Of a stretch of DNA of 51,441 bases, positions 164 through 39,432 are shown in pieces. The first letter of the stretch is position 1. The number at the start of each line of letters is the position of its first letter. Under the pieces are notes generated by a model that worked only from the letters and a program-made list of their open reading frames with translations, did no database searches and had not been told where the DNA came from. This DNA comes from a virus (Duplodnaviria > Caudoviricetes). The stretch is from the IMG/VR virus record IMGVR_UViG_3300039448_000011, positions 1 to 51,441 of that record; one strand, given 5' to 3'. Made by a program: the position numbers and the translations under genes.

Positions 164-391
164 GTGCAGATAAATCCTAAGTCAAAGTCCGTAAGCTACC
201 GGCTTGAAAAGCTGGAATGTATTGAAGATTCGCTAAATGAAATAGAGAGAATAGCTCTTGAGGGTGACGGGGTAAGTGGTCAATCTGCTAGAGGAATCGT
301 TAACAGTCTTAACGCTATCCGAGATGACTTGTGTATGAAGCGAGGCGTTCAGCGGCACCTGAAGTTTGCTCCAGGATTGAAGCAAAAATAA
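164..391 (+). CDS. Hypothetical protein
   Basis: GGAGG at 152-156 precedes in-frame GTG at 164; stop TAA lies in a TAAC box. Confidence 0.65.
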   Translation: MQINPKSKSVSYRLEKLECIEDSLNEIERIALEGDGVSGQSARGIVNSLNAIRDDLCMKRGVQRHLKFAPGLKQK

Positions 392-410
392 CTTACAGCG
401 CGTTATGCGC
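386..410 (-). repeat. Collapsed attC-like site (R boxes only)
   Basis: AAATAAC-9 nt-GTTATGCGC; GTTATGCGC (402-410) is complementary to GCGCACAAC (756-764) at 8/9 positions. Confidence 0.55.
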
Positions 411-421
411 GAGGTTTTTAA

Positions 422-775
422 ATGAAAGCGAGAATCGAAAAAAAGGTATGTAAACGACTTGTGCAAGTTTCACCAAAGTTATTCGAAGACGCGTGGAAAG
501 AAGCCTCTAGCGAGATAACCGAGTTGGCGCACAAGCAAGGTTCAAGAGTCAGCGGAATATACCTGATTGGAGGCGGGCTTGATTATTGGGGTGAAGGAAC
601 GGACGCAGAGACACCACTACAATTCATGCGCTCTCATTTTCACTGGATAGGAAAATTTCCAAATTACCCCGAAGGCCATAAGTTTTCTAATCATCCAGAT
701 ACTCAAGGGTTTAAGCCAACAACTCGAAATTTGATTAATCTTGCGCGGAAGTATTGCGCACAACCCAAGTTTTAA
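422..775 (+). CDS. Hypothetical protein, cassette-borne
   Basis: 117-aa ORF with GAGG RBS, bounded by complementary R boxes. Confidence 0.85.
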   Translation: MKARIEKKVCKRLVQVSPKLFEDAWKEASSEITELAHKQGSRVSGIYLIGGGLDYWGEGTDAETPLQFMRSHFHWIGKFPNYPEGHKFSNHPDTQGFKPTTRNLINLARKYCAQPKF

Positions 776-779
776 CCGG
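756..779 (-). repeat. Truncated attC-like half site
   Basis: GCGCACAACCCAAGTTTTAACCGG resembles the arms at 1049 (TAACCCCGGAATAACCGG) and 1360 (TAACCCCAAGTTTTGCGG); the partner arm is missing. Confidence 0.55.
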
Positions 780-793
780 AGAGGAATGTAGAG

Positions 794-1054
794 ATGAGCG
801 ATAGCGAAGAACGGAAAGACGAGTCCGAGTTGAGCGCCTTGTTAGCTGCGCATAAGCATAGAGAGATTAAAGTTTTTAAAGATGAACTGGCTGAAAAACT
901 TGATGAACTGGCTGATGTTTGCGAGCACTGGAAAAAGAACAGGGATAAAGGGCGAAACCCAAACGGCATAAGAGCAGCACTGCTTTATTTAGTTAGTGAA
1001 ATAGAAATAATGCGGAGCATGGAAGAGGCCATAAAAGTTTCTTGTGACAGCTAA
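794..1054 (+). CDS. Hypothetical protein, cassette-borne
   Basis: 86-aa ORF with GAGGA RBS; stop lies within the TAAC of the next attC-like site. Confidence 0.8.
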   Translation: MSDSEERKDESELSALLAAHKHREIKVFKDELAEKLDELADVCEHWKKNRDKGRNPNGIRAALLYLVSEIEIMRSMEEAIKVSCDS

Positions 1055-1111
1055 CCCCGGAATAACCGGACGAGCGCCAGCGAGTTCCGCTGGTTAATTC
1101 ATTTGTTATTT
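1049..1111 (-). repeat. attC-like recombination site
   Basis: Minus strand AAATAAC-AAATG-AATTAACC...GGTTATT-CCGGG-GTTAGCT fits R''-5-L''(8)...L'(7)-5-R'. Confidence 0.85.
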
Positions 1112-1125
1112 ACCATAGGTGAGCT

Positions 1126-1365
1126 ATGACGAAAGTTGCAGTTATTGGCGGTGGCCGATACTCCGAAGAGGTAGCGAAGATGCTAGCCGAGTTAGAAGGC
1201 ATTGAAGTGGTTGATGCTAAGAATGTTAGTAAGTCGGATGTACTGTCTATCTGCCCGACTGGGCATGAAGACTTCTCCAGCCTGAAGGTTCGAGCAGAGC
1301 CACTACTGGAGAACAACGAAACGTGGCGCGGTAGAGGAAAGCGCCGTAAGCCTATGTGTAAATAA
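1126..1365 (+). CDS. Hypothetical protein, cassette-borne (VAVIGGG N-terminus, basic C-terminus)
   Basis: 79-aa ORF with AGGTGA RBS; ends GTTATTTAC/GTAAATAAC are perfectly complementary. Confidence 0.8.
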   Translation: MTKVAVIGGGRYSEEVAKMLAELEGIEVVDAKNVSKSDVLSICPTGHEDFSSLKVRAEPLLENNETWRGRGKRRKPMCK

Positions 1366-1415
1366 CCCCAAGTTTTGCGGCAGCTTTAGCTGTCCGAAAG
1401 AATGGGTTGTTATAC
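1360..1415 (-). repeat. attC-like recombination site
   Basis: Minus strand GTATAAC-AACCC-ATTCTTTC-GGACAGCTAAAGCTGCC-GCAAAAC-TTGGG-GTTATTT; unpaired C in L'' and unpaired A in GGAC as in canonical attC. Confidence 0.85.
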
Positions 1416-1422
1416 GTGAATA

Positions 1423-1680
1423 ATGGAATTGATTATGACTAAGCACATATTTATTTTAGCTGGTTCTCATAAAGAAGCCGCACACTTAGCAAGAGAAAAA
1501 GGATTACACCCTAGCAACTGGACTTTTTTACACAAGCCAGAACAGTTACGCGGTTTGCGTGGCAACCCTTATATTCGGTACGGTACGTGGAGATATCAAA
1601 GGTTTATTAATGATATAGAGAGAATGCTAGTTGAACGTGAAATGCAAGAATGCACAGACGTAAGAATTAAAGACGTATAA
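1423..1680 (+). CDS. Hypothetical protein, cassette-borne (start may be 1435)
   Basis: 85-aa ORF; ends GTTATACGT/ACGTATAAC are perfectly complementary. Confidence 0.8.
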   Translation: MELIMTKHIFILAGSHKEAAHLAREKGLHPSNWTFLHKPEQLRGLRGNPYIRYGTWRYQRFINDIERMLVEREMQECTDVRIKDV

Positions 1681-1724
1681 CGCGCAGTACGTGTGCCGAA
1701 GGTCACACGTATGCTGTGTTATTG
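1675..1724 (-). repeat. attC-like site, terminal site of array 1
   Basis: Minus strand CAATAAC-ACAGC-ATACGTGTGACCTTCGGCACACGTAC-TGCGC-GTTATAC; both R boxes overlap stop codons of convergent genes. Confidence 0.75.
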
Positions 1725-2006
1725 CTTGGGTATTACGATGATTTCAATATCAGGCATGGCGAACTTGGCGCGATCAACAAACCGAGCTTCATCCGGCTTG
1801 CAGATCAGCGCAATAACAGGCATTCGCCCCGTCATTTTTGAATAGTAAAGCGCCTGCCCTATTGCCTCTGCCCATTTGTTGCACCAGTCGAATTCGATGG
1901 CGTGAGTGGGGGTAAGGCAATCAACACGAGTGCGATCAGACAGAGTGATTTCAATCTGGCCGTTCATGTGTGGGCAATACGTTTCAACGTAGTCAGCTTC
2001 CATCAT
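1719..2006 (-). CDS. Small PD-(D/E)XK-like nuclease-fold protein
   Basis: RVDCLT..HAIEFD...KWAEAIGQALYY motif pattern. Confidence 0.6.
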   Translation of the reverse strand: MMEADYVETYCPHMNGQIEITLSDRTRVDCLTPTHAIEFDWCNKWAEAIGQALYYSKMTGRMPVIALICKPDEARFVDRAKFAMPDIEIIVIPKQ

Positions 2007-2181
2007 CGCATTGCTCGTTGGCGGCTAAGGTGTTTATAGCTGCAATATAGCCCAAGCGGAATGACATTGCGTCAACGATAAGCGGGTGACCCTCACTTAG
2101 GTCGGATATCGGAATGAGGGCCTTCTTTCCGCACGACAAGCGGGTGAGTATAGAGGTTTGAGTGATTGCTAAGACTTCCAT
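1993..2181 (-). CDS. Hypothetical protein
   Basis: AAGGAG RBS upstream of ATG at 2181; overlaps the start of the next gene. Confidence 0.6.
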   Translation of the reverse strand: MEVLAITQTSILTRLSCGKKALIPISDLSEGHPLIVDAMSFRLGYIAAINTLAANEQCDDGS

Positions 2182-2314
2182 GATTATATTCTCCTTATTG
2201 ATAGGGGTAATATTATTGTAATGGTGCGTAACAATCATCGTTCACATAAAGACAATTTATCCAGATTGGAAAAAGTGGCAGTATTTGTCCAAATTAGAAA
2301 AACTGGGTAACAAT

Positions 2315-2761
2315 ATGCATAGTGCTGACGATTTCGGAACACGATTGAGGCAGGCACGTAAGGAGGCGGGCTTAACGGTAAAATGGATGGTTGACTTTCT
2401 GAATGGATATTTTGTTAGTGCAGGAGGCAGGCCGATAGGAGTTCAAACGTACTACAGCTGGGAGCGCATCGGCACACCCAGAGAAGTGAGCGGTAAGGCA
2501 TACCCCCACCCTGGCATCTACAAGCTGATGCTAATTCCACTGGGGGTTACTGGGTATTGGCTGTTCAATGGTGACATGGGCGGAAGGATAGTTAAGAGCA
2601 GGGAGGATTTACCGACACTGGAAGGTATAGACTATGGTATCGAGCAGAAGCACGCCATCCAAACGGGCGATAAGCTTAGAATTGAATTTAACAGAGTGGC
2701 TGGCAAGATGAATACGCATCAAAAACGCGGGCTTCTTGAGCTACTAAGGGCGACAAGATGA
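2315..2761 (+). CDS. XRE-like helix-turn-helix protein
   Basis: FGTRLRQARKEAGLT...SWE...LGVTGYWL pattern. Confidence 0.75.
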   Translation: MHSADDFGTRLRQARKEAGLTVKWMVDFLNGYFVSAGGRPIGVQTYYSWERIGTPREVSGKAYPHPGIYKLMLIPLGVTGYWLFNGDMGGRIVKSREDLPTLEGIDYGIEQKHAIQTGDKLRIEFNRVAGKMNTHQKRGLLELLRATR

Positions 2762-2982
2762 CACTTTGGTCTGATGAATTCTGGGGGCTGCTCATGGGTA
2801 GCTATATATTGAGCATTATCATTGTTTTGTTTTCTGGCGGAGTACCCACAAAGTGGCAGACGTGGCCCATGGTTCACTTGGTTGCGCTCTCCTTTCCGAT
2901 ACTTGCAGTCGCCTCCTCCGTTCTGGTTGCCATCCCTGGCTTAATGGTTCTTGGGCTTATTGTGGCAGCCACCACTAGGTAG
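2758..2982 (+). CDS. Small membrane protein
   Basis: ATGA overlap with upstream gene; two long hydrophobic stretches. Confidence 0.6.
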   Translation: MTLWSDEFWGLLMGSYILSIIIVLFSGGVPTKWQTWPMVHLVALSFPILAVASSVLVAIPGLMVLGLIVAATTR

Positions 2983-5900
2983 CATTAATAGCCCTTAGCT
3001 TGGGCGTCACCTTTTCTATGAGCTGGTTGCGTCTAAGTTTCAGTAGGTCAATCCGTCTACGCTTCTCTTCACCGCTCAAATCCTTATTCTTTTCGATGGC
3101 CTTGATTCGATTTCTAATATCCTGAAGTCTGCGGTTAACTTTATTCATTAGTTTTCTCATGCCTATCAGGTCGCCATTTTCTTCCATCACTTCAGCTTGA
3201 GAGGATAAATCTCCCTCTTCCCTGTAGCGCTTCAGGTCGGCATAGAGCCTATCCGCCTTGCGGATTGAGTCATAAAACAACTCTGAATCTTGTGTGTAGG
3301 TTGGACGGCCGGCATCGCGATAAAATCTACGAATCGGCTGGTATTCAGTCCAATATTTGGCGGGCTTGTCGCTTTCAGCAAGCTGGCCAATCACCATGTC
3401 CGGTATAGCAACACCCCAAGCGCCAACCTGACCAAGGAAGCCGCCAATCAGGTAGTCCATCTGGACTGGTGATAATGCATAGTTTGAGTCATCACCAAAC
3501 ACACCTGTAGAAATGGAGCTTAACCCTCTGGCTGCAAGGGTCGTATCTTCTTTTGTTCGATTCCCCTTGCTTAGGCGCTGCTGCCCCATGGTTTCAATCT
3601 GCCGCCCGGTGAACGAATCTTTGTTCGCATACACATCAAGCACTGGCTGAAACATTTGTGGCACCGGGCTAAACGAAAATGTCCCTGTTAGCATATGGCT
3701 AATACGCTCTCTGAATAACTTTCCTGTGGCGGTATCATCAACGGCCTGTTGAAGCAGGCGTTCAGTTATTGTCGCAATAGCGCCGACCTCAAACGGCTTC
3801 GGTATCGTAATTACATTATCGGTTCCGGGGATACGAAACCACCAGTACGAGTCTTTAAGCCAATCCGGTGCCTTCTTGTAGTCTTCGTCGTCTTGGTTGT
3901 GCAGAAACAATGCCATGGTCGCTGCAGACAGCGCACCAACGACCGCGGTAAATCTAGCCGCCGCTTTCTTATCATTAACACTGGCTTCGATTTTTCCTAT
4001 GCCGAGCATTTGCGCAGCGACTTTCGTTGTCGGCTTCACGCCTGAGCGGTAGAGTTTATCCAGACCTTGGAGTCGAGCGTTCAGAAACGGCACCACATCG
4101 ATCAAGAAACGAATTGCGGGCCATGCCCCGTGCGCTGAAAAGTCCATTAGATCTCTAGCCTGAAATGCAGAGTAGAGCGTACCCTTGCCAGCATCCTCAG
4201 ATTGCTTGAATGCCGCCGCGCGGTTTACGTTCTCAAGGCTGTTGTTCACATCTTGCCAGCGGTCCCAGCCTGCCTTGAGTGGTTTAAGCCCAAGCTTAAG
4301 TAGCTGCTTAGGATCTTTAATTACTTTGGCTCTGCGCATCTGACCGTCAATCTGGTATCGGATTGAGTCGGCATCTTCACCATAAACATGACCAAACGAA
4401 AACGCCCCACCCGTTGCCATTAGCCTTGCTCGCTCGTACCCGTTCCGATCCAGCAAGCCAAATGACTTCAGGCCCTGAGTGACGTTGCCAACCGCATTCT
4501 TACTCATGTCGGTCACCGCTACGGCGCTCATGGAGTCACGAAGCAGGTTGGCCACAACAAACTGAGGTGTACTGGTGGTTAGATTTGTAAAGGTTCTTTT
4601 AAACCAGCGCATTGCGGTCATTGCGTAACCATTCATTCCGGTATGGTTAAGGCTGGTCAGTGACGAATAGACCATGGGATCAACTATGTCGTACCACTCT
4701 TTTTCGCCATTACGAAGAATGAATGTGCTTTGCTTCTTGTCGCGCGCAGCCTCGGAGGTCTTCTCTGCAACACCAAGATCAACCGCGTTATCAACCCCTT
4801 GTTTGGCAGCCATGTTTTTCAGACTGGCATCAACCAGGTGGTGAAAGTTCATTAGGGTGTTTTGCAGGAGGTCATTTAGATTTTGAGTGCCGCCTTTCAG
4901 CTTCTTATAAGCTTGCTGGCGACTAAGCCCGCCCATCACTCTTGGGCCGGTCGTGTCTGTGTTGTCTTCATCCAACCGGTAAAATGGGACATAAAACTCG
5001 TTCGACCACATATCCCGATTTTCAGCAGTGATAACCCCGGATTCTTCAGCGATAGCTAACACGTCATCACGGTATTGCTGAAACTCCTTAAATACAGACT
5101 CGTAAAGCTTCGACCGTTCACGGCCGTCTTTTAGATTTCCGCCATCTAAACTCTTGAGGGCATCAATATCCTTCTGAGAGAACAGATTCTCTCGACCTTC
5201 CGCCATTAGCTTTTCGCCACGATTACCGGCGATCCAGCCCATGAAGCGCTCAACCTCAGCGCCAGAGCCAAGCTTATTAAGCGTATACATCAAACCTTGG
5301 CTGTCTTTTTTAACGTCGACAATGCCATCACCATTCATGAAGATTCGGCCAGCATTCATCATTGCCGATACGGCACCAGAGGCAGCATTGCTCATCTTGG
5401 CGCGCGCCCAAGCGGAGCGGGTTATATTCTCCTCACTGGTGATATTACCGTCGAGCAACTGCTTATCCAGCTCCATTAATCCGGCGTAGCGGTCAACCAA
5501 GCCCTGACGGACCTTTAGGCGCCAGTCATCCATAACGCCGCGTACCTTTTCAGCGGCGGATTCGATAGGGCCCTTTGGTCCTATTTTTGAAAGCGCCTCT
5601 TTCTGATCATTGCTAAGACTGCTATCACTAGCAAGGTCGTCAGATAGACGCATTAGAGCTGAATCTCCACGAGCCGGTTTGCGGTACATGGATTCACTGA
5701 TTTCAAAGTCTTTATTTCGCCCTTTATTTTCAATAAATCCAAAGCGCTTATAAAAACCAATGAGTCGTGATCGTGAAGTTGTTCCTTGAAAGTCATCCTT
5801 CAGCGCAGGGGATAGCGCAACAATTTTGGAGTTTTCATCGGCATAACCAATTATCATTTCTAGCGCCTTTGTGCCGATGCCGGAATTTCGATATTCTTTA

Positions 5901-8900
5901 TCAACTATAATCGAATCAAGTTTAATTTTTCCGCGAGACTCGTAAAGCGATATTGTTTTGATACCCTTTACGCCTTCAATCTCGCTTCGCAATTCGTCGA
6001 TATTTTTTGCATTGCCACCCTTGCCAACCGACGCAAGCGGCTTACCAGCCCCCTTACCTTCGTTACCGTACTTCTTAAGATGCCGTCTGCCCCTCTCGAT
6101 CAGTGCCAATGTATCGGTATCTGTCCAGTCGATATCAGGATTAATTCGGCGAATAAGGTCACGCAATGCAGCAATCATGCGACGCACAAGGCCCATCTTG
6201 CGGCCCTTTTCCGCCAAGTGTGCAATGTACTCCAGTACCGCAATGCGACGCTCTTCCTGATTATCGTAATTAAAATCATACCTTGAGATTTCTTTGTCGA
6301 TAGCGGGCTGGCCAGCGCGGTAATAAATCTCATCCAGCATGGCAAGGTATTCCTTACCACCGGCTTTTTCATTGGCCTTCAGGTAGCTAATGACACCACC
6401 ATGACCAATCACTTCATGGAGAAAAACACGCTTAGCATGGTGCTTGTCAATGATATTCCCGGCAACGATATATGTCTTTCCGGTTTTCGGATCATAAACA
6501 CCTTCGGATTGATTGAAGTGAGTACCAAGCTCAAGCTTTAATTTCCCCGGGAGATCTAGGCTAGTTTCAACAATCTCAATTGAACCCATCCCGCCAGTCA
6601 TATCCTTAAGCCATTCACGAACTTGGCTAGCGGTATTTTTTCGCTTAATACCAGAGGCGTTTCCAGTTTGTATTTGGCTTGAGAGAGATTTGATTTTTTC
6701 GTCTACATCTTTGGATAAAGATGCTAGTGCTTGCCCGTCAGGCTTATCAATTACAATAACCTTGGTATTGACGCCGGTAGGATTTAAAGATGATTTAAAT
6801 GCACCTTCAGGCAGAGACTGCTCCTCCGCGCCAAGTTCATCAAGCAACTCTCTGAATTTTTTATTTTTACTATTCTGTCTATCGCCTGCCATGCTGGACA
6901 CGATGGCGACAAGCCTTCCACCGGGCTTTAGGTGTTTATAGGCATGTATAACGTGGTCAATATCTTGATCCTTGCTAAATGGCGGGTTCATTAGAACTCT
7001 GTCGTACTCGGCCTTCGGTTCTAGCTCTAAAAAGTCATCACCAATAAGCTTGTGGCCTTTTTCTTTAAGAATTTCGCGAAGCTGGCCAGCAAGTTCCACG
7101 GTGTCTACGTCGGCACCACTTGCCTTCGCTTCATCTGCAAGTAAGCCATTGCCTGCAGAGGGTTCCAATACCTTCATGCCATCTTCAATATTGGCTAAGT
7201 CAGCAATTTCAACAGCTGTTGATTCCGGCGTCGGAAAGAAATCATTAAAGGCCTTCCGATTACCAAGCAAGGTTCTTTGTAGTGCCTGTTCAAGGTCGGC
7301 TAACTTGGTCTTGCGCTTCGGTCCTTCGGCCGATTTTTTAAGCTTGATAAATTCAGTTAAAACCGCCCGCAGAGTCGGAAGATTCTTAATTCCCATGCGC
7401 TCTAGCCGCTTGCGATTCATTGCCACATCATAGTGAGTGGTGTGCTTTTCTCCATGCTTAGTGACGAACTCTAATACCTTATCCCTCACTCTGGCGGGAA
7501 TGATAATGGGCTTTCCGTCTTTCGCGGAGCGAGCCTGAGCGCGCAATGCGTTCGCTGCTTGCTTAAATCCTTTGGTCGATTCCATTTTTTGAGCTAAGTC
7601 TTTAGCTGAATCTGGGTAATAGGTTTGCATTGGTAGCTGAGCAAACTGAACCATTTGCTCAGGTGTTACGCCTGACGCCCAGGAGCGGCGACTCATTCGA
7701 TCGCTCTCAAACAATTCCGGATCAGCATCGTAAATAAGTCGATTAGCCAGACTGTTAAGTAGCTCGATCTGTACTTTCTGATTAGCGTTTTTTAGGAGTG
7801 GATGGCCACCTTCTGAAATTTCCGCCATCACTTTGGCAAGTGTTTTTTGTGTCTCTGCTCGCGCAACTGCACCCGCTGCCATGTCGGCACGGCGCAGGGT
7901 GTTCGTATTCCGATCGGCGTTAAGGTTTTCGTCCGCATCCGACTTTAGCCGCTCGGCAATGTCACGCATTCTATCCGATGCGCGCTCAAGCTTTTGTTGT
8001 CTTCGCTCTTCGGATTTTTCGGATAGGTCGGCATCCTCGCCTTGCATCCAGTTCTTAAACTGATTGGCCTGTTCAATTGAGGGGAAGTAAAAGTTTCCGC
8101 GCCAATACCCACCGCTCATCGATCGAGCCATCGCGGCCGATTCTTTAAATTTATCCTTGCCTAGCCGATCAATTACCTTCACGTTAAAGATGATCTCACC
8201 GGTTTTGCCGTGAGTGCCCTCTTCCGGCTCACCCATTGCCACCGGCTCGTCAGATTGAAACCCCTTTCTCACATCCTCAATTGGAGTGTCACTCATCGCC
8301 TTTTCTGCAATAAGACGATCATACTGAGTTCGCTGTTCTAAACTCAGAGACTCGAAACCCCGAAGCTTTATAGCGTCCCTAAATTCTTCGAGTGTCTGCG
8401 GGTCCTTTAGTCCGTCAATCTGTTTTTTTCGCTCAGCTATAGCAGCGTCAATATTTTCCTTTCGCTCTCTGGCATACTCGGCAATAGTTGCATCAGTCAA
8501 TGAATCAATGTGATCTCGCGTCATCTGGGCGATGTCAGAGCCATGAGTCCATGAAATAAACACATCGCTATTACCAATAAACCGATATTTCTGAACTAGG
8601 CCGTCATAGGCCATGTTCACAAGTCTGTCTTTTTTCGTATCGGAGAAAACGTGACCGGTGGTCATCGGCTCAAGGTCAGCTTTCGTTAATTTGCGCAGCT
8701 CGGACTTGCTGGCATCAGGGTCAGTAACCAGCGCCTCAAAAGTATCGGATAGCTCCGCCCTAGTAACGGCCTCACCGCCACTTAGGCGTTTCATAACACT
8801 GTTAATTCCTTCGTGTGCCGGAAGCTGTGCAGGCTTTGTAGGTTCAGCATCAGACTCAGCCTCAACCTCAGGTTCGGCATCAGGCCCAAAATCGTCGTTC

Positions 8901-11900
8901 ACTTCGATGGTGCTTGCTCGTGGCGCGTTGGAAATATCGGCATTTCCAGCCACTGCCGCACCCTCAGGAATAGGATGAAGCTCAAAGCCACCGCTCACCT
9001 CGACCAACTCATAGCCCGCGTGACTCTTTAAAGCCTTGCGGGCAGCACCTTTGCTTTTGTACGGATTGCCAGCGGTGTTGCGAATGATTGGCCTGTCAGG
9101 CTTGGCTTCGGGTGCTGCATCTTCAATTGCGTACTCCTCACGCAACGCTTTCCATGCTTGGCGGTTGACTCCTTCAGGAGAGTCGCTGTTCAGCTGATTG
9201 AATTCCTCAAAGCTCAGATTTGCTTGAGCCTCATCGACAAGCGTCTCGTATTCTTCGGAAAGTTTATCAAGCGCATCTTTATAGCCCGGCGATGATTTCT
9301 TTAGGCCGGACTTGGCGGCCATTTTCTTAAGGTAGGCTGTTTTGGTGGCGGTGAGAATTTCTGGAAGGCCAGAACGAGAAACCCCGGCATTGGCCGGGGT
9401 TTTTTCATTACTTTGACTTAATCCGCCTGACTTTATCCAGTCATCGACCTTTTCAACCAAGTGGTTTGTAAGATCAACAAATTCGTTATACCGCCAGTCG
9501 TGACGCTTTCCATAAGGGCCAACTATTTTATCCTTGCCTCGATCGGCGTCATTAATGTACATATTGGCGTCAGCGAAATCATCAAGGTCTTCCCAGCCAG
9601 AAACCTTGGCAGGGTCGATAGTGCCGGATTCCACATCGTTTAGAATTTCTTTCTTGGCCACTTCGATGCGACGGTCGATAATTCCTTGCAACTCAGGGTC
9701 ATTGAAATCCACCCCCTTTCCATTCGTATATTCATTTGCGGGGGAGGTTATCCGATCATCATCCGTTAAACCATTACCTGTTTTTTTATTTGCGCTGGCA
9801 ACGACCTTGCTAATTTTCGTTGTCGGCTCCTTGTATTCGGCTGGCTTCTCAGCTTTAACGATAGTTCCAAAATCATGCCAATTGCCATTAATCTTGGCCT
9901 CTTTTCTTGATTGGGATATACCCTCAATCACACCACCCTTAAAGAAAGTTTTTTGCTTTTCGCTTTTAACGGCCTTCGCATACTCGCCGCGCTCAAATCT
10001 CTGCTCTATCGGCTCGCCATTTACCACTTTGTAGTTGGAAAATGAATCATTCCCTTTTTGGCTTGGCTCTGCTGGAGCGCTAAGTAGATCCTCTTGCCCT
10101 TGAGAAGCGGCAACGTCAGCAGTACGGCCAGAGCCAGACAGTGCAAAACCTTCCACCTCGGCATCAGCCTTTGCTTTTTTTGCTGCTTTCTCTTCTGCCT
10201 TAACCTTTTCTTTTTCTTCAGACTGACGCTTAGCCTCCATTTTCCGAAGGTCGTCTTCAGTATAAGAGCTTAAGAGTTCTTCTTCGGGTTCTGGCTCTTT
10301 GCTTTCTGCTCTTGTCCACCCTGGATCTTCTCGACCGGCGGTTTCTTTTTCCAGCGCTCGTTTAGCTCCAGCGCTTTCAACACTTGTGGGTGTAACTTCT
10401 TGGCCATTTTTATGTGCCTCGGTAAATACAAATAATCTTAAGCTAAATTCAACCGGGTCGTCGCCAAACACTTGAGCGATTTTAGTCACTACAGGTTCAG
10501 GCAATCCAGCATCAAGCGCTTCTTTAATATCGTCAGCAAGTGCCATACCGACACCATCAATACCATCAACCGCCGAATAGCTCTCTTCAGTAAAGCGCGT
10601 TTCCATGCTTGAGGCAATCCGCTTAATTCGATTGGCGTAACGATTCGGCACAGGGTTGGATTCGGCAAAGCCAGCCTCTTGAGGTGATAGTTCGCCTCGC
10701 ATTACTTTTCTGAATTTCGTTATTTGCTCTCTTTCAGGTATGGCATCGGTGCGTGCGTAATCGTTTCGCTCGTCGGTAATGACATCAAGTGCATATTTTA
10801 CCGCTCTCGCTTCGATTGGCTTCAGAGGCTTAGCGTTAACAGCCTTATCAATCGCTCGCTTAAATCCTTTTACGGATATCCGCTTTACATTCTCCGGAGC
10901 TTCCTGAAACCATGCGGGGTTTTGTGACGGCAAAAAATCAAAATACTTTTTATCGGGATTGTTTTTTGCCATCGGGTCCAAAGGAATTGTGGACATGCCG
11001 CCTTTGTATTGGATTTCGCTACCCATCTTCTCAAGCCGCCCCCGGTGCCATGTTCGCAATAAGCGCCCGTCATCAAGTCCTTTTGGCATCTTGAGGTTTC
11101 GTATTGCATCACGGTCACTATCGTTAAGTGACTCTCCCTCGCGAACATCCATCGTAGGTGGCAGCTCAACAACCTCGGGCAGCTCTGGGGTTGGCTGCTG
11201 ATCAATGGTTATTTCTTCTGCGGGGATAAACCGAACATCGCCTTTTTCTGGTAAGTCGGGGACAACTACTGGCGATTGACCTTGCTGCTCAGTAAATGTC
11301 TGCTCAGTAACTTTCTTGGCATTCTGTGCAGCTTCCGTTGGCGGCATATAGTAAGGCGCATCAACGGTAGAAGGTATCGAACGCGAAGGGTCAGGCTCAA
11401 AATCTGAAACCTCTGGCCGTGCTGCTTCCATTTCACTAAAGGTGTCAGCGTCACGCTCCATCGTAACTTCAGCCCGTGGTATGCCTTCAATGTACTCACC
11501 AACCGCAATGTACTCAGCTGGGAATTGAGCTGATGGCTCAGGGCTTTGCGGGTCAGGCTCACCCATCTGGGTGACTTCGCGGTAAATCTTCAGCGCACGC
11601 TCATTGAATCGCTTGGCGGATTCAGTGTCGCCTTCATTGGCGAACTCTTCAGCCATTTCAAAATTACGCTTGGCTGCACGAAGACGAACGACTTCATCTT
11701 CAAATCCTTGTGACTCTGCAATATAGATATCGTCATCAATACCCTTGTACTGCTGGCGCTCGGCCTTGATCTGGGATACGGCATCGACTAGCGATAGCTT
11801 TGGTTGTTCTGGCTGTGCTGGTTGTTCCTGCGCCTGAGGATCAACACCTTGCTCCTCGGCCTGAATTTCGGGCTTCTCTACGGGTGAGCCTTTAAAGGCA

Positions 11901-20734: not shown

Positions 20735-21289
20735 TTAAGACGTTGCTATGTTCGTTATCGGAGCTGATGTAATAACCGCTGTTTCACCGTCAGACTCTGA
20801 ATTGGAATCAAAATAATTAGGGAAGAAGGTCTGCTCAGTTTCTATGTTCGTTATCGGAGCTGATGTAATAACCGCTGTTTCACCGTCAGACTCTGAATTG
20901 GAATCAAAATAATTAGGGAGGAAGGTCTGCTCAGTTTCTATGTTCGTTATCGGAGCTGATAAAGTATCCGCTAACCACTCATCACCAATCGGACTGGGAT
21001 CGTTATTGTCCGTATCCGAACCAATATTTCCCCACATATCAAACCTGATTAAGGTAGCGGTCATGCCCACGCTTAAATTATTGGCAGAGGCGACTCCTTG
21101 AGAGTCTTCATCATGAGTACTGCCTAGGCCATCCCATCGGGTTTTTTTTGATTGAAGCTCAGATTCAACTGACAGATAAAATCGGTTATCGCGCCCGAGA
21201 ACCCATGGATAGGTATTCCAATCGCCCGAGACGGTCTCATATGGATTATGCTGATAAAGCGCACCCATGTTTGCAAATCCTGCAAGCAT
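20735..21289 (-). CDS. Tail-associated acidic protein with 32-aa C-terminal repeats
   Basis: 184 aa; SAPITNIETEQTF repeat. Confidence 0.65.
   Translation of the reverse strand: MLAGFANMGALYQHNPYETVSGDWNTYPWVLGRDNRFYLSVESELQSKKTRWDGLGSTHDEDSQGVASANNLSVGMTATLIRFDMWGNIGSDTDNNDPSPIGDEWLADTLSAPITNIETEQTFLPNYFDSNSESDGETAVITSAPITNIETEQTFFPNYFDSNSESDGETAVITSAPITNIATS
20746..20960. repeat. 96-bp tandem repeat, about 2.2 copies
   Basis: Units start at 20746, 20842 and 20938; one mismatch seen between the full copies. Confidence 0.95.
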
Positions 21290-24940: not shown

Positions 24941-24942
24941 AC

Positions 24943-27827: not shown

Positions 27828-27843
27828 CGTTGTTGAATTCTTT

Positions 27844-31890: not shown

Positions 31891-31902
31891 AAACTCACCA
31901 AT

Positions 31903-31931: not shown

Positions 31932-31961
31932 AATCTCTTTAATTTTGTCGCTCGTCAGCTT

Positions 31962-32687: not shown

Positions 32688-32716
32688 GTGATTTCCTTGG
32701 TTTTTTTACTTAAGGG

Positions 32717-33061: not shown

Positions 33062-33071
33062 CTTACCCTAA

Positions 33072-34209: not shown

Positions 34210-34574
34210 ACTGCCTCCTGTTCGTTTCCCAATTCAGTTGATTCAGCCGCGGCAGCTTTGCGCATGGCGATGATCATGGCGTCGATTTCTTCCCAGCTCA
34301 TCGGCAACGTTCGCTCGTGATATACGTCGTTTCCGTCAGTGTGCTCAAGCATCGTGCTGAGTAACTTAAATTCATCATTGCTTAAGTAGCCTTCAGGCGT
34401 AACCGGGGTGCCGTCCTCATCTTGAAACTCAAGGCCACGCAACAGCCAGACGGTTAAAGGTTGGCCATTTTTAGTAACGTCCACAGGGATTGGCGTGTGA
34501 TTAGCACGCGGAATAACTGATTCAGCAATTAAAATAGAATACGTGTCCGCAGCGCGGCGGGTGGAAATACTCAT
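34206..34574 (-). CDS. Hypothetical protein
   Basis: 122-aa ORF, coupled overlaps at both ends. Confidence 0.7.
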   Translation of the reverse strand: MSISTRRAADTYSILIAESVIPRANHTPIPVDVTKNGQPLTVWLLRGLEFQDEDGTPVTPEGYLSNDEFKLLSTMLEHTDGNDVYHERTLPMSWEEIDAMIIAMRKAAAAESTELGNEQEAV

Positions 34575-35998
34575 GATGCTATCTCCAGTTTGCGACGGAA
34601 GCTTATGTTGCTGATTTCTGCGCCTATCGCGACGTTAGAATCGAACCATAAACCAGCCTTTGGAACCGCATAATCCCAAAGCACACGCCCCGCATTGGGC
34701 ACCGTGAGAAATTGATTTCCGCCCGCAGGATTTTGCGTGTACAACCGCAAGCCACTACCGGAATAATTAAAACCGACTTGATAAGTACCGGGAACCGAAG
34801 CATTCCCAAAGTTTTCACCCAACGGCCCCCAGGCATTAGAGTCTTTTGTGTACGTACCATTGCCGTCGTAAGTCCATGACACCGAGCCGTTGGACGTAGG
34901 CCCAAATAAGTTTTGAACGCCCAACCAATAGTCCCACCAACGTTTTTTCTCAATCTGCATCCAATCTTCAGGCAATGCGTTTTGCAGTATGACGCCTGAC
35001 CATTCGCGGATTGATACTGATTTAATCTGGGACAAGCTACCTTGCTCACGTAAAACGATCCAGTGTGTGGTGCTTACTGCTTCAAAGACAATCTCATTCA
35101 AACCCACCGACAGGAATCCATCTGTGGTTGATACTATTGACAGGTTTACACCGCCAGTACTGGAGTCAGCCAACAGAAGGTAGGAGAGGCCCACCGTTTC
35201 GGTATCAACTATTAACTTGTAAGATTTGCCTACAGTCAGGCCGGTGATTTGCTGCCTATATTCTGCTCTATTGGAAAAGTCGTCCCCATTTAAAATGGCG
35301 CACCCACCTTCTATAGATACGGAACCAGATCCTGTTGATTCATCCGACCAGTTATCCGGTGTTAAAAAGTAACCATTCGTAACCAACTCAGTCCCCGACG
35401 CCACCGCACGATTACGCTGGTAGTCAGAGCTGGATTCATCAAACGGCCCATTCAGAATTAAATTATCATCAACCCACCCTAATAAACCAAATGGTATGCC
35501 TGTGAATCTAGTTCCTCCGAACACAAAACATTTATCAAATCTAATTGCATCAGAAATAACAGTTGTACTAATTACGTTGCCATTAATTAAGGCAGAAACA
35601 GTATTATTAGATGACCGATTTAGCTCAATCACACAAAGCTTGTTATCCATCGACTGACTAGCAACAACCTCCCCTGCGTTGTGGTAACTACTACCTAACT
35701 GATAAACAAACTCGCCACTTGCATTTATATTTACACGCGAACGAGGCAACCCTAGCGCTTCATAATCTGCAAGATCCATTAAACCATTATTTGTAAACGA
35801 GGATGAGTACACTATCCACTGCAGCTTGAAAGGCGTATCAGAATCCACTAAAAAATCATCTGAAAACTCACCCCATTGAGTGCCGTTAAGCTCAAACACT
35901 GAACGCTTCAGGTACTCACGATAGCCGTCATCCCCAGGCACGAACGGCTTGCGTATCGCTGAGCGCATGGCGCTGTGCTTGATCGCGGACTTAATCAC
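34571..35998 (-). CDS. LamG/CBM-like beta-sandwich protein (possible virion fibre or glycan binder)
   Basis: ELVTNGYF...W, QQITGLTVGKSYKL and ISNISFR are typical of CBM-like repeats. Confidence 0.6.
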   Translation of the reverse strand: MIKSAIKHSAMRSAIRKPFVPGDDGYREYLKRSVFELNGTQWGEFSDDFLVDSDTPFKLQWIVYSSSFTNNGLMDLADYEALGLPRSRVNINASGEFVYQLGSSYHNAGEVVASQSMDNKLCVIELNRSSNNTVSALINGNVISTTVISDAIRFDKCFVFGGTRFTGIPFGLLGWVDDNLILNGPFDESSSDYQRNRAVASGTELVTNGYFLTPDNWSDESTGSGSVSIEGGCAILNGDDFSNRAEYRQQITGLTVGKSYKLIVDTETVGLSYLLLADSSTGGVNLSIVSTTDGFLSVGLNEIVFEAVSTTHWIVLREQGSLSQIKSVSIREWSGVILQNALPEDWMQIEKKRWWDYWLGVQNLFGPTSNGSVSWTYDGNGTYTKDSNAWGPLGENFGNASVPGTYQVGFNYSGSGLRLYTQNPAGGNQFLTVPNAGRVLWDYAVPKAGLWFDSNVAIGAEISNISFRRKLEIAS

Positions 35999-36300
35999 TG
36001 ACTGCTAACGCTCACTGAATAATCAACGTTCGTCACCGTCGGAGTAACAACAACGTAATCAATTGCGCCCGCGTCCAGTTGAATCATCCCGTTTTCAGAG
36101 ACTATGTTTTCAGATTCGGCGCCAGGGTTAACTCTATTTGTTGAGCTATCAAAACCGTAGGGCACAACAGTAATCGTAATATCGCCAGTCGCGCCGGAGA
36201 AATACAATGTGTGCAGTGACGATCCGTTTGCAACCTGAATTAGTTGCTCACCCTGAAGCCCGTTTTTGATTTGTTTCTTTTGGATATCAGGCATTGTCAT
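35995..36300 (-). CDS. Hypothetical protein
   Basis: 101 aa, beta-rich, coupled to the downstream gene. Confidence 0.65.
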   Translation of the reverse strand: MTMPDIQKKQIKNGLQGEQLIQVANGSSLHTLYFSGATGDITITVVPYGFDSSTNRVNPGAESENIVSENGMIQLDAGAIDYVVVTPTVTNVDYSVSVSSQ

Positions 36301-36532
36301 TGCTCCCGCGAGACTGTCTGTCAGTCAACACTGCAATATCCTTGTCGTGTTGACTAATTATTGATGCGTGCTCATCAAGTCGTGTCTGATGTCGAATGTG
36401 CTGCTCGTCATGCGATGAGAGTTTTGATGAAACGATGCCGTAAATGCGTCCAAGTCCAATGAGCTGCATAGCAAATGTTGCGAACAACCCTCCAACCGCT
36501 ACCAGCGTATTTGTATCGACGTTTTCGAGCAT
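36287..36532 (-). CDS. Single-TM coiled-coil protein (holin/antiholin-like), first late gene
   Basis: One hydrophobic helix followed by heptad pattern; ATG at 36532 just after the terminator. Confidence 0.6.
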   Translation of the reverse strand: MLENVDTNTLVAVGGLFATFAMQLIGLGRIYGIVSSKLSSHDEQHIRHQTRLDEHASIISQHDKDIAVLTDRQSRGSNDNA

Positions 36533-36548
36533 GCTAAATCCCAGACGC

Positions 36549-36580
36549 AAAAAAGCCCGGATCAGATTTAACTGCCGGGC
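36549..36580 (-). terminator. tR'-like terminator
   Basis: Minus strand GCCCGGCAG-TTAAAT-CTGATCCGGGC-TTTTTT. Confidence 0.8.
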
Positions 36581-36616
36581 TGTTTATGTATTTATATTCG
36601 TTGAGGTCATTTAAGA

Positions 36617-36658
36617 CCAGTATGACAAAAAGTTACTCTAGCTGCGCACTGGTGTCAA
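36617..36658 (-). promoter_or_regulatory. pR'-like late promoter with putative Q-utilisation element
   Basis: TTGACA-17 nt (contains TGCGCAGC)-TAACTT, then CATACTGG. Confidence 0.8.
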
Positions 36659-36745
36659 CACTCTGTTTTTAATTTGCTGCGGAAGTATGCAAGAGGTGTT
36701 GAAGTTGATAGCAGGCAATTCGCATTAATTTTAAATTATTTCCCT

Positions 36746-36780
36746 GTTTGTGTGTACAAACTAAAATAAAGGTGTATAGT
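36746..36780 (+). promoter_or_regulatory. Promoter/operator of the accessory operon
   Basis: -10 TATAGT at 36775; palindrome GTTTGT-GTGT-ACAAAC over the -35 region; AT-rich upstream. Confidence 0.55.
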
Positions 36781-36850
36781 TATTTACATGGAAGGCAACA
36801 ACGCCAACCAGCCGACCAAGCGGGACTTGGAATAGAAAGCGAGAAAAATC

Positions 36851-37258
36851 ATGACTACAATCACTATCAACGACCTACCAAAATCATGCGCCCTAACAAA
36901 AATTGAGCTTTGTGGCGATCATGAAACTATCATCGAATTAGTTCGCAGCGTCACCACATACCCAACAATCAAAAACAAATCTGGAAATCTTGAGCTAGAC
37001 GCTAGCAAAAAAGACATTGCAGGTGTTTACAACGCGGTATTTGCACACAATGATCGCGTCAAAAAATCAGAATCCAAGCCATCTACAACTCAAACCACCG
37101 AAAAACCAGCAGAGCGCTATGTTGAATTACTCGCTACCGCTGAATTTGAGAATTTAAACCACGGTCGCGCTTGGTATTGCTCTGAGCTAGACATTGAAAC
37201 CAAAGGCGCCTCTCCTGCATGGGAAGGCGAGCAAATCTGTTACGTTTATCCAAACTAA
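36851..37258 (+). CDS. Hypothetical protein, anti-defence candidate
   Basis: 135 aa; first gene of an operon opposing the late direction. Confidence 0.8.
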   Translation: MTTITINDLPKSCALTKIELCGDHETIIELVRSVTTYPTIKNKSGNLELDASKKDIAGVYNAVFAHNDRVKKSESKPSTTQTTEKPAERYVELLATAEFENLNHGRAWYCSELDIETKGASPAWEGEQICYVYPN

Positions 37259-37295
37259 TTAATAGGCGGGGTAACCCGCCAATCGGAGAATCAGA

Positions 37296-37514
37296 ATGAT
37301 TAAATATAGTGTTGTGAGCGAAAAACAGGATGTTGGCGGCGATATTATCGAAATATTTAGTGTTGTTGACGACGATGGAATGCCAATCAATGACGGGCAT
37401 TTTACCGTTGAGTCAGATGCAAACTACGTATCAGAGAAAATGAATACAGGTAAATTTGGCGGAGACGATGTGTCGAATTTATGCAAATTAATGGATAGCT
37501 GGATAATCTGCTAG
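37296..37514 (+). CDS. Small acidic protein, anti-CRISPR candidate
   Basis: 72 aa, D/E-rich, GGAG RBS; function inferred from context only. Confidence 0.75.
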   Translation: MIKYSVVSEKQDVGGDIIEIFSVVDDDGMPINDGHFTVESDANYVSEKMNTGKFGGDDVSNLCKLMDSWIIC

Positions 37515-37601
37515 AAAAAATCCCCACATAGTGGGGAACGGAACTACTTAGAAACAGACATTCTATGTCTATGTGGTTCATCCCCGCAAAACGGGGAACT
37601 G
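37514..37601 (-). CRISPR. Type I-E-like mini-array (repeat - 32-nt spacer - degenerate repeat/terminator)
   Basis: Minus strand CAGTTCCCCGTTTTGCGGGGATGAACCA + CATAGACATAGAATGTCTGTTTCTAAGTAGTT + CCGTTCCCCACTATGTGGGGATTTTTTC; 60-nt period. Confidence 0.75.
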
Positions 37602-37631
37602 CACCCTCACGGGCACGCTCATAGCAACATC

Positions 37632-37659
37632 AATTTACATGGTTTTTTTAATCTGTCAA
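37632..37659 (-). promoter_or_regulatory. sigma70 promoter facing the mini-array
   Basis: TTGACA (37659-37654)-16 nt-TAAATT (37637-37632). Confidence 0.7.
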
Positions 37660-38096
37660 TGGGTAATAAAATGAAAAAATCAACGTTAGATAAGTATTTG
37701 GCATTCGCCAGCCCTCTCACTGGCTATGGCCACGACTTCTACTTTAATGGTTATATCGCTGGCCTCAATGCCTACTATGCGCGCCTAAAGCAGCTAAAAA
37801 CGCTGGATAAACACGAAGCCGAGCTTGAGCGTGCTCGCATGGTTTATCCGACCGTTGAGTCGGCAGACGGTATCTCAGACGGGCTCGATGGCCGCCCACC
37901 TTCGGGTTACGTCCAAGAGCAAAGCCACTTAGCCGGGAATGATCATGCTGTTAAAGATGCCGAACCACGCGATAATCGTGTGATCATTCGCTGCAGTACG
38001 ACAAATAAAACGCGCTGGGATGCCCACAAAAAACCATCAGAATCCCGCGCTGATTTTATCACCCGTGTGCTGAATGCCTACTGCGACAATCAATAA
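37659..38096 (+). CDS. Protein with C-terminal ribbon-helix-helix domain (Aca-like regulator candidate; start may be 37671)
   Basis: GNDHAVKD...RVIIRCSTTNKTRW...SRADFITRVLN fits the RHH pattern. Confidence 0.65.
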   Translation: MGNKMKKSTLDKYLAFASPLTGYGHDFYFNGYIAGLNAYYARLKQLKTLDKHEAELERARMVYPTVESADGISDGLDGRPPSGYVQEQSHLAGNDHAVKDAEPRDNRVIIRCSTTNKTRWDAHKKPSESRADFITRVLNAYCDNQ

Positions 38097-38112
38097 GCAC
38101 CAATAACAAGCA

Positions 38113-38137
38113 AGGGCTGAGAGTTCTACTCAGCCCT
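38113..38137. terminator. Hairpin between convergent genes
   Basis: AGGGCTGAG-7 nt-CTCAGCCCT. Confidence 0.6.
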
Positions 38138-38156
38138 ACCCTAACCTTTATGTCAT

Positions 38157-38762
38157 TCAGAACGGAATATCATCGTCAAAGTCATCAAAGTTATTGCTTG
38201 GCTGCTGCATTGGCGACGGCTGCTGCACAGGCTGCTGGTAATTCCCTTGTTGAGGTGCTGACTGCTGAGCTGCACGCTGAGGGCTTTGCATTGATTGTGG
38301 TGCTTGCTGTTGAGGCTGCTGGTAACTTTGCTGCTGTTGAGGTGCCTGCCTAGGTTGTGGGGCTTGTTGTGGGGCTTGTTGCTGATAACCACCCTGCTGT
38401 CCGTCACCCTGCTGTCCACCGCTCTGCGGTCTACTATCCAGCATCATCATGTCGTTACAGACAATTTCAGTCGTGTAACGCTTAATCCCGTCTTTTTCCC
38501 ATTCGCGAGTGCGGAGCTTGCCTTCAAAGTAGGCACGCGAACCTTTCTTCAGGTACTGCTGACAGATTTCTGCAAGCTTGCCGTATACCGTAATGCGGTG
38601 CCATTCAGTCTGCTCGACTTTTTGACCGGTCGCCTTATCGTTATAGCTTTCATCTGTTGCGAGAGAGATATTTGCAACCGCATTGCCATTCGGCATATAA
38701 CGGACTTCTGGATCGCGACCCAGAGTACCGATTAATGTGACTTTGTTTACTGATCTGCTCAT
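38157..38762 (-). CDS. ssb: Single-stranded DNA-binding protein
   Basis: [21 protein letters not shown]-rich linker, DFDDDIPF tail. Confidence 0.97.
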
Positions 38763-38837
38763 TTTTACTCACCTTTCGTATTTATCCTAGCCCTGCCAGG
38801 ACGGTTATCGTCATGTATAGATTATTCGATTTTCTAT

Positions 38838-38889
38838 ACATAACACTTCAGAGCGCGGGACGTTCCGCCCGCGTCCATTCTTGTTATTC
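38838..38889 (+). repeat. attC-like site, terminal site of array 2
   Basis: ACATAAC-ACTTC-AGAGCGCGGGACGTTCCGCCCGCGTCC-ATTCTT-GTTATTC. Confidence 0.7.
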
Positions 38890-39039
38890 GTGTTCGGTGA
38901 TTTCCGAACACTTAAACGTTTTTTTGCCAACATAGAACGACCCTTGACGCTCGCACTCTGTAGCTATTGTCGAATGTGCCCACTCCCAGCCTATCCATAC
39001 GCCGAAAACCAGCATTAACAATGCGAAGAACATTTTCAT
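38884..39039 (-). CDS. Small membrane-anchored protein, cassette-borne
   Basis: GAGGTG RBS before ATG at 39039; MKMFFALLML...ECERQGSFYVG; ends GTTATTCG/CGAATAAC are complementary. Confidence 0.75.
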   Translation of the reverse strand: MKMFFALLMLVFGVWIGWEWAHSTIATECERQGSFYVGKKTFKCSEITEHE

Positions 39040-39048
39040 CACCTCTCC

Positions 39049-39112
39049 GAATAACAAACATTTGAATCGTGGACTGTCGCTACGCTCCAGCCCATTAAAA
39101 TCTGGGTTATAA
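39049..39112 (+). repeat. attC-like recombination site
   Basis: GAATAAC-AAACA-TTTGAATC-GTGGACTGTCGCTACGCTCCAGCCC-ATTAAAA-TCTGG-GTTATAA. Confidence 0.85.
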
Positions 39113-39115
39113 CTC

Positions 39116-39364
39116 TTAATGGCATTCACATAAGCCGCCATTGTAATCATAAGCACCTTCATACTGCTCACCGTTATAGTGCTCTCCAGCCTCGCCATAC
39201 CAATCTTCGCCGTTACCGCAGCAATCACACACTTGAACATCGTGCTCAGGTGTTGCCGCAATCCATTTAAGAATATCGTCTTGACTCATTGGCTCTTCGG
39301 TTTCCGGTAATTGCTCGTAATTTAAGAATCCAGTCCCAGAACATCTAGTACATATTATCGCCAT
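39116..39364 (-). CDS. Cys-rich zinc-finger-like protein, cassette-borne
   Basis: GGAGG RBS; CxxCxGxG and CDCCGNG motifs; bounded by GTTATAAC at both ends. Confidence 0.8.
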   Translation of the reverse strand: MAIICTRCSGTGFLNYEQLPETEEPMSQDDILKWIAATPEHDVQVCDCCGNGEDWYGEAGEHYNGEQYEGAYDYNGGLCECH

Positions 39365-39384
39365 ACTTGCCTCCAATTAATCCG

Positions 39385-39432
39385 TTATAACAAAGTATTG
39401 CAGCGGACAAACCGCTGACTACGGGGTTATGC
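39385..39432 (+). repeat. Short attC-like recombination site
   Basis: TTATAAC-AAAGT-ATTGCAGC-GGACAAACC-GCTGACT-ACGGG-GTTATGC. Confidence 0.85.

Follow-up and report, generated by a model that had tools for sequence, protein, structure and literature searches.

Evidence for reversed cassette polarity in two integrase-less attC clusters of a marine temperate phage

The genome of a temperate, lambdoid-like marine phage probably carries genuine integron-type cassettes in two small integrase-less attC clusters, one at the far end of each of its two divergent early operons. The stretch analysed (51,441 bases, hereafter the window) is the whole of the IMG/VR virus record IMGVR_UViG_3300039448_000011, for which the completeness estimate is 99%. 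In the first cluster (array 1, within 758–1724), the genes are on the plus strand; in the second (array 2, within 38838–39432), they are on the minus strand. A preliminary description had proposed that the genes of both arrays are inverted with respect to the attC top strand. This reversed polarity is partly confirmed: two covariance models support it at two sites and a sequence profile of the hairpin arms supports it at all seven, but only the two sites are individually significant.

attC sites of the window and their polarity

The window contains 92 TAAC...GTTA pairs of 36–140 nucleotides (nt), and the six best folding energies per base are alternative spans of five sites (at 1052, 1363, 1678, 38841, and 39388). 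The gene-sense strands, folded as single-stranded DNA, beat shuffled sequences in five of the six sites tested (z −3.0 to −5.0). All seven sites considered are bounded by TAAC...GTTA, the one at 770 reading TAAC...TGTTAGCT, and the flanking R and Y positions of the consensus cores R'' (RYYYAAC) and R' (GTTRRRY) fit partly (e.g., GTTATTC). Each array holds three to four sites within 1 kb and no IntI, as in clusters of attC sites without an integrase (CALINs; at least two attC close together, without IntI), with one attC per array when significant sites only are counted. The arrays do not form a complete integron, as there is no IntI; attI and the Pc promoter were not searched for. Judged from their sequence, these sites are real, beyond chance.

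Hairpin energy finds sites but gives no polarity, and covariance models were therefore built. A search of 301 genomes, from the class of the Psychrosphaera genome described below, for TIGR02249 gave 112 above the cut-off; three unpublished genomes contributed nothing. Training DNA was taken upstream of intI at 22 places, the top strand being defined by position alone as the strand leading away from intI, and candidate sites were chosen on AAC...GTT ends, folding energy, and agreement with the cores, all applied symmetrically to the two strands. Model R1 came from an alignment of 38 sites (consensus fold of 16 pairs, 10 showing compensatory changes), and model R2 from 138 matches in 20 bacterial integron arrays. 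These self-built models were used instead of the standard IntegronFinder model, and the window was scanned with R1 with the filters off. In 284,554 bases of arrays, R1 gives 152 matches at E ≤1, four of which are second-strand echoes of sites scoring 29–72 bits on the other strand; all 138 bacterial matches at E ≤0.02 lie on the array-defined top strand. The arm profile relies on sequence alone, with the two cores as anchors; when one locus at a time was left out, it gave the correct orientation for 127 of 129 real attC (median difference 27.7 bits).

In array 1, a long, degenerate attC-like site on the minus strand (758–847, or from 770) is weak as a whole, with 11.1 bits (E 1.4) under R2 and 8.3 bits under R1, both on the minus strand; the arm profile gives 19.0 bits on this strand and a difference (plus minus minus) of −29.3. 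The 5' end of the cassette open reading frame (ORF) 794–1054 (plus strand, 86 residues, no family match) covers the R''–L'' arm of this site (847 to 823), and an R'-like GTTAAAA of the site overlaps the stop of ORF 422–775. The TAA stop of ORF 794–1054 is the TAA of the TAAC box of the next site (1049–1111, minus strand), where polarity is ambiguous by covariance model (R1, 17.7 bits on plus and 16.4 on minus; R2, 13.1 bits on minus and 9.8 on plus) and the arm profile gives −12.3. ORF 1126–1365 (plus strand, 79 residues) stops within the complement of the R' of site 1360–1415, the best supported of array 1, with its top strand on minus (R1, 23.3 bits, E 0.0066; R2, 25.6 bits, E 4e-4; arm profile −22.6; fold z −3.0). 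ORF 1423–1680 (plus strand, 85 residues), a member of a small metagenome-contig family, is followed by an attC-like hairpin on the minus strand (1675–1724; −14 kcal/mol, z −4.96) that R1 and R2 do not report and whose polarity comes from the arm profile only (−11.3). Contigs L002, L160, and L146 have sites similar to this one after homologous ORFs.

Array 2 includes a weak attC-like site on the plus strand (38838–38889; R1, 11.9 bits on plus, E 1.6; R2, 8.1 bits on plus; arm profile +4.2), the R' G|TT of which, at 38883/38884, is the left boundary of a shared cassette. This cassette A (38884–39106, plus strand, 223 nt) comprises the antisense ORF 38884–39045, a small membrane protein matching phrog_4568, and the plus-strand attC-like site 39049–39112 up to its G; the site travels with the ORF inside the shared block, is not reported by R1 or R2, and scores +17.9 by arm profile. 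Cassette B (39107–39426, plus strand, 320 nt) comprises the antisense ORF 39116–39376 (86 residues, Cys-rich) and attC 39385–39432 up to its G. The latter site, with its top strand on plus, is the best supported of array 2 (R1, 24.7 bits, E 0.0035; R2, 19.0 bits, E 0.017; arm profile +19.7; bottom-strand fold z −3.7), and its R' overlaps the stop of the minus-strand ORF 39427–39600.

At both significant sites, the top strand is opposite to the gene strand under R1 and R2, where the models could have assigned attC to the gene strand. The arm profile places the top strand antisense to the genes at all seven sites, four of which are weak. The stops, said earlier to fall in or next to R', do so: the TAA stops of ORFs 794–1054, 1126–1365, 1423–1680, 38884–39045, and 39427–39600 are the TAA of the gene-strand TAAC box, the complement of R', and that of ORF 39116–39376 is 7 nt away from it. 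The arrangement typical of cassettes, though not obligatory, is a co-linear ORF ending in or near R''; the window ORFs are antisense and end in R'. The description of the attC top strand (TAACAA, GGAC or TGAC, a G-rich run ahead of GTTA) agrees with the consensus obtained for real top strands, and the background on which it drew (bacterial ORFs mostly ending in R'', bottom-strand recombination, folding on the lagging-strand template) holds. Reversed polarity makes the bottom strand the sense, non-template strand, so that its placement on the non-template strand of phage transcription, also proposed before, is a direct consequence.

Array 1 had been taken to begin at 386. The hairpin at 386–412 was ruled out as attC, scoring −49 bits on both strands by arm profile, and array 1 does not begin there. 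This short GC hairpin follows ORF 143–391, includes a terminator-like match (398–410) with the tail GAGGTTTTTA, and may be a terminator or a collapsed remnant. A further attC-like match (41812–41858, plus strand; 12.6 bits with R1, 11.4 bits with R2) lies in the NinB gene, antisense to it, and is probably due to chance.

Boundaries and mobility of the cassettes

The protein of 51 residues encoded at 38887–39039, used as a query, retrieved one provirus contig, L146. Positions 1930–2157 of this contig match 39110–38883 of the window over 228 bp with 98.7% identity, and nothing else is shared in its 4.1 kb. The block runs from the R' G|TT of site 38838–38889 to the R' of site 39049–39112. Because it ends on two R' boxes, the mobile unit is an ORF plus the attC at its start side, which is predicted by reversed polarity and excluded by canonical polarity. 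A seawater contig of run X6 (1642 nt) has the block (38882–39110) with unlike flanks, and the G|TT-bounded unit 38884–39106 is therefore found in differing contexts, as is a mobile cassette. One ORF-plus-attC unit, delimited by a TAA|C box on either side, distinguishes contigs L159 and L160 from each other, and the body of the downstream attC is preserved. Two contigs of run X3 are also of this kind: a 90-nt contig joins 38887 to 39425 with the body of site 38838–38889 kept (weak, the shorter side being 28 nt), and record 9 covers 39105–39457, that is, cassette B, with a different start. That these are mobile cassettes common to phage-like contigs, with boundaries fitting reversed polarity, is borne out by L146, X6, and L159/L160. 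Across metagenome runs, attC bins have far more contig depth than cassette interiors (contig depth only), which is expected of a repeat family. Stretches of 38500–39700 that no contig covers in runs X2–X6 were left out of the evidence, as were the habitats of runs with a small share. In contigs L003, L004, and L005, one identical attC (~60 nt) occurs with three different upstream genes and unlike flanks; this mosaic fits an ORF-less mobile attC, yet, given the imperfect L004 and L005 junctions described below, was not counted as support for secondary-site insertion. An exact-pattern scan with the core of the L004 attC found no contig beyond the three already known.

Under the favoured interpretation as integron-type cassettes, the mobile unit on the attC top strand consists of TTA (the complement of a TAA stop), the antisense gene, its ribosome-binding site, and attC as far as the G in R'. 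Seen from the gene strand, each attC precedes its own gene, with the crossover G|TT read as TAA|C at the stop of the previous gene. The likeness to attC, the polarity, the boundaries of the cassettes, and the recurrence of one cassette in unrelated surroundings are observed here, and the movement of the cassettes is proposed as follows. The folded bottom strand, here the sense strand, would be the substrate of recombination, and a host integron integrase, SOS-induced and present in the likely host group, would shift cassettes between phages and prophages. Expression would come from read-through from phage promoters and not from Pc, so that the cassette genes would be silent in a bacterial integron.

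It is very unlikely that the hairpins are instead intergenic palindromes of the phage that resemble attC by convergence, with modules swapped by homologous or illegitimate recombination without IntI. The model scores are low, there is no IntI on the phage, and the phage encodes RecT and a RecE-like protein; the ~60-nt identical site with unlike flanks in L003, L004, and L005 could also stem from homologous exchange. The shared block, however, ends on R' cores of 7 nt, which would not suffice for homologous exchange, and block ends are on the R' side in every case. Sites of a related phage reach 53.5 bits, about 60 other phage loci have no matches (842,840 bases searched), and similar sites of Pseudoalteromonas phage H101 recombine with IntI1 (Qi et al. 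2023, PMC9892861).

A role at the RNA level, in which the orientation is kept because transcription in the bottom sense gives a hairpin and U-rich tail (UUUGUUAU) that could terminate weakly, attenuate, or stabilise mRNA 3' ends between small genes, is less improbable but still unlikely. A scan with a loose consensus found terminator-like matches in gene sense at 1076–1094, 1687–1712, and 398–410 (plus strand) and at 39415–39400 (minus strand), and the counts exceed those expected both in 1–3000 (7 vs 2.6) and in 36400–40000 (13 vs 2.9). The tails are nevertheless poor (their T runs are interrupted by G or A), the stems are bulged, and the match at 38853–38874 (plus strand) is antisense to the genes. 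This role, predicted from the sequence alone, leaves the cassette-exact mobility unexplained.

Sedentary chromosomal integrons share with the window the R''/R' cores, the imperfect hairpin with asymmetric arms, the crossover at G|TT, one ORF per cassette, and the same cassette in different arrays. They differ in that the window has no intI, its ORFs are on the other strand, and the stop is in R' and not in R''; the window sites are also shorter than those of the likely host group (~100 nt, L078 and L079). Lambdoid phages carry small accessory genes, the morons and the mosaic nin region, at the ends of early operons. The window resembles them in having small genes at early-operon ends and between NinG and later genes, regions that are hypervariable between relatives, but its modules are bounded by attC cores and not by promoter/terminator pairs or short boundary sequences.

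The arrays had been put forward as the candidate for an undescribed system, which overstated their novelty: attC clusters without integrase (CALINs) have been described in phages, where they are recombined by IntI1, and the attC sites of phages H101 and TJE1 recombine with IntI1 better as bottom than as top strand (Qi, Rajabal, Ghaly, Tetu, and Gillings 2023, PMC9892861). The phage CALINs of that account are alike in having attC and small ORFs, no IntI, and marine hosts including Pseudoalteromonas. Its text, in the parts consulted, describes the arrays of TJE1 and H101 as typical bacterial ones and does not mention gene polarity. In contrast to that account, the genes of the window and, by the present check, of H101 are antisense to the attC top strand. 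A statement that phage cassette genes are reversed was not found in the full-text literature searched, which did not cover the figures and Dryad annotation of the 2023 paper.

The layout in other phages and the origin of the reversal

Across 72 phage and prophage loci (842,840 bases), R1 gives 11 matches, seven in L002–L006 and four in L066. The seven, in NinG-anchored loci, are all opposite to the NinG strand. A complete phage with terminal repeats, G305, has five matches (27.5–53.5 bits) divided between two arrays, one per strand, and in each array they are antisense to the local ORFs. The reversed layout is found in L002, L003, L005, L006, L146, and L154 (seven sites in L154). In Pseudoalteromonas phage H101, three matches (24–30 bits) are on the plus strand, and all nine annotated genes of the stretch are on the minus strand. 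The plus strand corresponds to the 'Reverse' oligos in Table S3 of Qi et al. 2023 (PMC9892861), which we infer, from the aadA7 control, to be the top strand. P12002L has one weak reversed match, and Shewanella phage 3/49, Vibrio phage jenny 12G5, and Vibrio phage H188 have no R1 match at E ≤0.5; the single 16.2-bit match in Saratov-12 is inside a gene and was not used as evidence. Counting lineages that were not ascertained via genes of this phage, three are reversed (H101, P12002L weakly, and L066 by ORF content only) and one, TJE1, is canonical. A bias towards reversal in phages is thus no more than suggestive, and TJE1 shows that it is not universal.

Two of these contigs merit separate mention. 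Almost the whole of L154, a 3.3-kb metagenome contig, is taken up by seven attC-like sites arrayed at 1–2816; they belong to one family (sense strand ...TTGAGCGCCTTGTTAT) and are separated by small ORFs on the sense strand. L066, binned as an Ohtaekwangia metagenome-assembled genome, has four strong attC matches (28–38 bits) on one strand at 1955–3705, with a phage-type exonuclease gene ~6 kb away; the strand opposite attC carries long ORFs (one of 247 residues) that end in R'.

Six homologues of ORF 1423–1680 were found, and an alignment query gave seven loci of metagenome contigs, always with antisense attC-like sites nearby; 14 of 15 matches in these loci are on the antisense strand, and the fifteenth is a second-strand echo. 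One site, in L158, scores on both strands (10.4 bits on plus vs 11.4 bits on minus). Single-protein scans of viral and metagenome contigs with ORF 1435–1677, and a single-protein scan with ORF 39119–39364, gave no homologues. tblastn with ORFs 1435–1677, 39119–39364, and 1126–1362 against 50,697 phage records gave no match, nor did the DNA of positions 1–12000 of the window.

That the phage simply captured minority bacterial cassettes with reversed, self-promoted genes, there being no phage-specific pool, is quite unlikely. In the bacterial arrays, the longest ORF is forward in 99 of 115 cassettes, with 31 of these 99 stopping in R'', and reversed in the other 16 (four gaps were dropped for size), so that a minority of this kind exists; these 115 cassettes are the bacterial comparison against which the phage-specificity of the pool is to be read. 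Of the 16 reversed ORFs, however, a single one stops at R', and most cover less than half of the cassette. Likewise, positions 1–3000 contain no promoter-like site, one cassette ORF matches a phage family (phrog_4568), and shared copies are in a provirus and phage-like contigs.

For the reversal itself, we tentatively suggest that founder attC units entered packed operons at GTT secondary sites by the attC × attG route, which does not exclude other causes. Cassettes insert at genomic GWT sites, with a double-stranded target, by this reaction (Loot et al., bioRxiv 10.1101/2022.09.11.507474). It offers a route for an attC unit into a genome without an att site, and the junctions of the window are G|TT; it differs in that the work was done in Escherichia coli chromosomes and, in the parts consulted, reports neither a strand bias nor a transcription bias. 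In a packed operon, the most neutral GTT secondary site would be the complement of a TAA-C stop, and insertion there would force the top strand to be antisense. Two such sites flanking a resident phage gene would turn the gene into a cassette. TAA-C stops would then act as attG targets in phages, which would account for the overlap of R' with gene stops.

Somewhat less likely than entry at stop codons, in our assessment, is selection of the reversal because it places the bottom strand on the lagging-strand template while the genes stay sense to phage transcription. In its favour, both arrays have the bottom strand as sense strand, the pattern of two arrays on two strands recurs in G305, and excision is higher when the bottom strand is on the lagging-strand template (Loot 2017). 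Two 31-nt palindromic repeats at 44073–44304, within the replication-initiator gene, plausibly mark the origin of replication used in the preliminary description, and since both operons diverge from them, the geometry fits the lagging-template placement it proposed. The placement, however, needs bidirectional replication and is inseparable from operon divergence; origin and replication mode are putative, and the directions of replication and transcription are confounded. Frequent excision, moreover, would promote loss no less than gain, the functional attC of TJE1 have the other orientation (Qi et al. 2023, PMC9892861), and the exact placement of R' on the stop codon is left unexplained.

Against the interpretation of the arrays as reversed integron cassettes stand several points. 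Only two of the seven sites have E <0.02 under both models, the other five scoring 8–18 bits or not being reported, and site 1049–1111 is ambiguous under R1; the significant scores in the window (19–26 bits) compare with 25–72 bits for bacterial matches at E ≤0.02. The sites are short (48–64 nt), and site 39049–39112 is an exception in folding (z −1.2). Since R' contains TTA, stops are to some extent expected there, and unannotated, probably spurious antisense ORFs of TJE1 also end in R'. TJE1 itself is canonical, with three matches on plus and genes on plus. Near 4270 in L004, only an attC remnant follows the shared gene and the junction is not a clean TAA|C; the L005 junction near 1994 is not clean either, and the extra 1.36-kb piece of L005 lacks a TAA|C end. 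The sample is not independent, L002–L006 having been fetched via NinG and L154–L160 via a cassette protein, and the cassette ORFs are orphans that may stem from phages or from bacteria. GTT is also possible on the sense strand of spacers, so that the availability of targets alone does not force the antisense orientation. That IntI recombines the window sites as folded bottom strands is predicted by analogy with H101 and TJE1, whose sites recombine with IntI1.

Genome context and implications

Family scans of the record identified a P22-type portal, a T4-type large terminase, and an SU10 adaptor; a cI-like repressor with an S24 domain (45866–46522, plus strand); a replication initiator and a P-like loader (44495–43061, minus strand); NinB, NinG, and single-stranded DNA-binding protein (SSB) on the minus strand; and RecT, the RecE-like protein, CsrA, and a DnaQ-like exonuclease on the plus strand. 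This layout of repressor, initiator, Nin, and Rec genes defines the two early operons, which diverge from ~45–46 kb. Array 1 is at the distal end of the plus operon, provided that the record is circular, and array 2 is in the minus operon between the NinG-side genes and SSB. No integron integrase was found in the 51,441-base record by a TIGR02249 search, and no other integrase family turned up in general family scans of it; IntI was also not found in the related phages G303–G305. A host enzyme is therefore implied. The closest prophage relatives of the exonuclease gene are in Psychrosphaera and Colwellia assemblies, and the genomes of both with related prophages encode IntI above the curated cut-off.

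The phage thus has a cI-type repressor without any detected integrase family, and array 1 occupies the position of lambda int/att. A Vibrio anguillarum prophage excises from two chromosomal attC sites (supplement of Qi et al. 2023, PMC9892861); speculatively, a host IntI might use attC for lysogeny here.

Other features of the window are a tRNA gene (44602–44675, minus strand; Rfam, 73.4 bits) adjoining the replication-initiator gene, an ORF of 3338 residues (2975–12991, minus strand), and a 96-nt tandem repeat (20742–20972), with two full copies 98% identical and a partial third, inside a minus-strand ORF beside tail-fibre-like genes. Two small, overlapping ORFs (1719–2238, minus strand) point towards array 1, and a plus-strand helix-turn-helix-like gene (2285–2761) comes next; neither the ORFs nor this gene has a family match, and 1719–2761 may be a small regulatory or toxin–antitoxin-like module. 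Three plus-strand ORFs lie in 36600–38150, between the minus-strand gene 36287–36550 and SSB, together with two 25-nt hairpin repeats (ATCCCC...GGGGAAC; 37520–37604) that are 60 nt apart and 76% alike. Read on the minus strand, these repeats resemble a type I-E CRISPR repeat, and they may be a phage-borne mini-array with one spacer. The relative L002 lacks 36600–38150, the two flanking genes being joined directly, and the block looks like an inserted accessory island.

Integrons are viewed as bacterial gene-capture devices in which the cassette genes face one way, for reading from Pc. The reversed cassettes suggest that phages keep their own pool of such genes. A recurrent mirror-image layout would mean that phages trade accessory genes through the host IntI, in a form unreadable in bacterial arrays, and so maintain a second, partly separate pool. 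Standard integron annotation takes genes to be co-linear with attC and would link the cassette genes of phages to the wrong sites. How new cassettes arise is still an open question, to which the overlap of crossover and stop codon would offer a concrete answer that can be tested. We consider it possible, if rather unlikely, that phage operons are the birthplace of integron cassettes, the host IntI inserting ORF-less attC at the GTT of TAA-C stops and two insertions making a reversed, excisable cassette. If true, this would amount to a phage-borne cassette pool unreadable from Pc and to a testable answer to the question of cassette origin.

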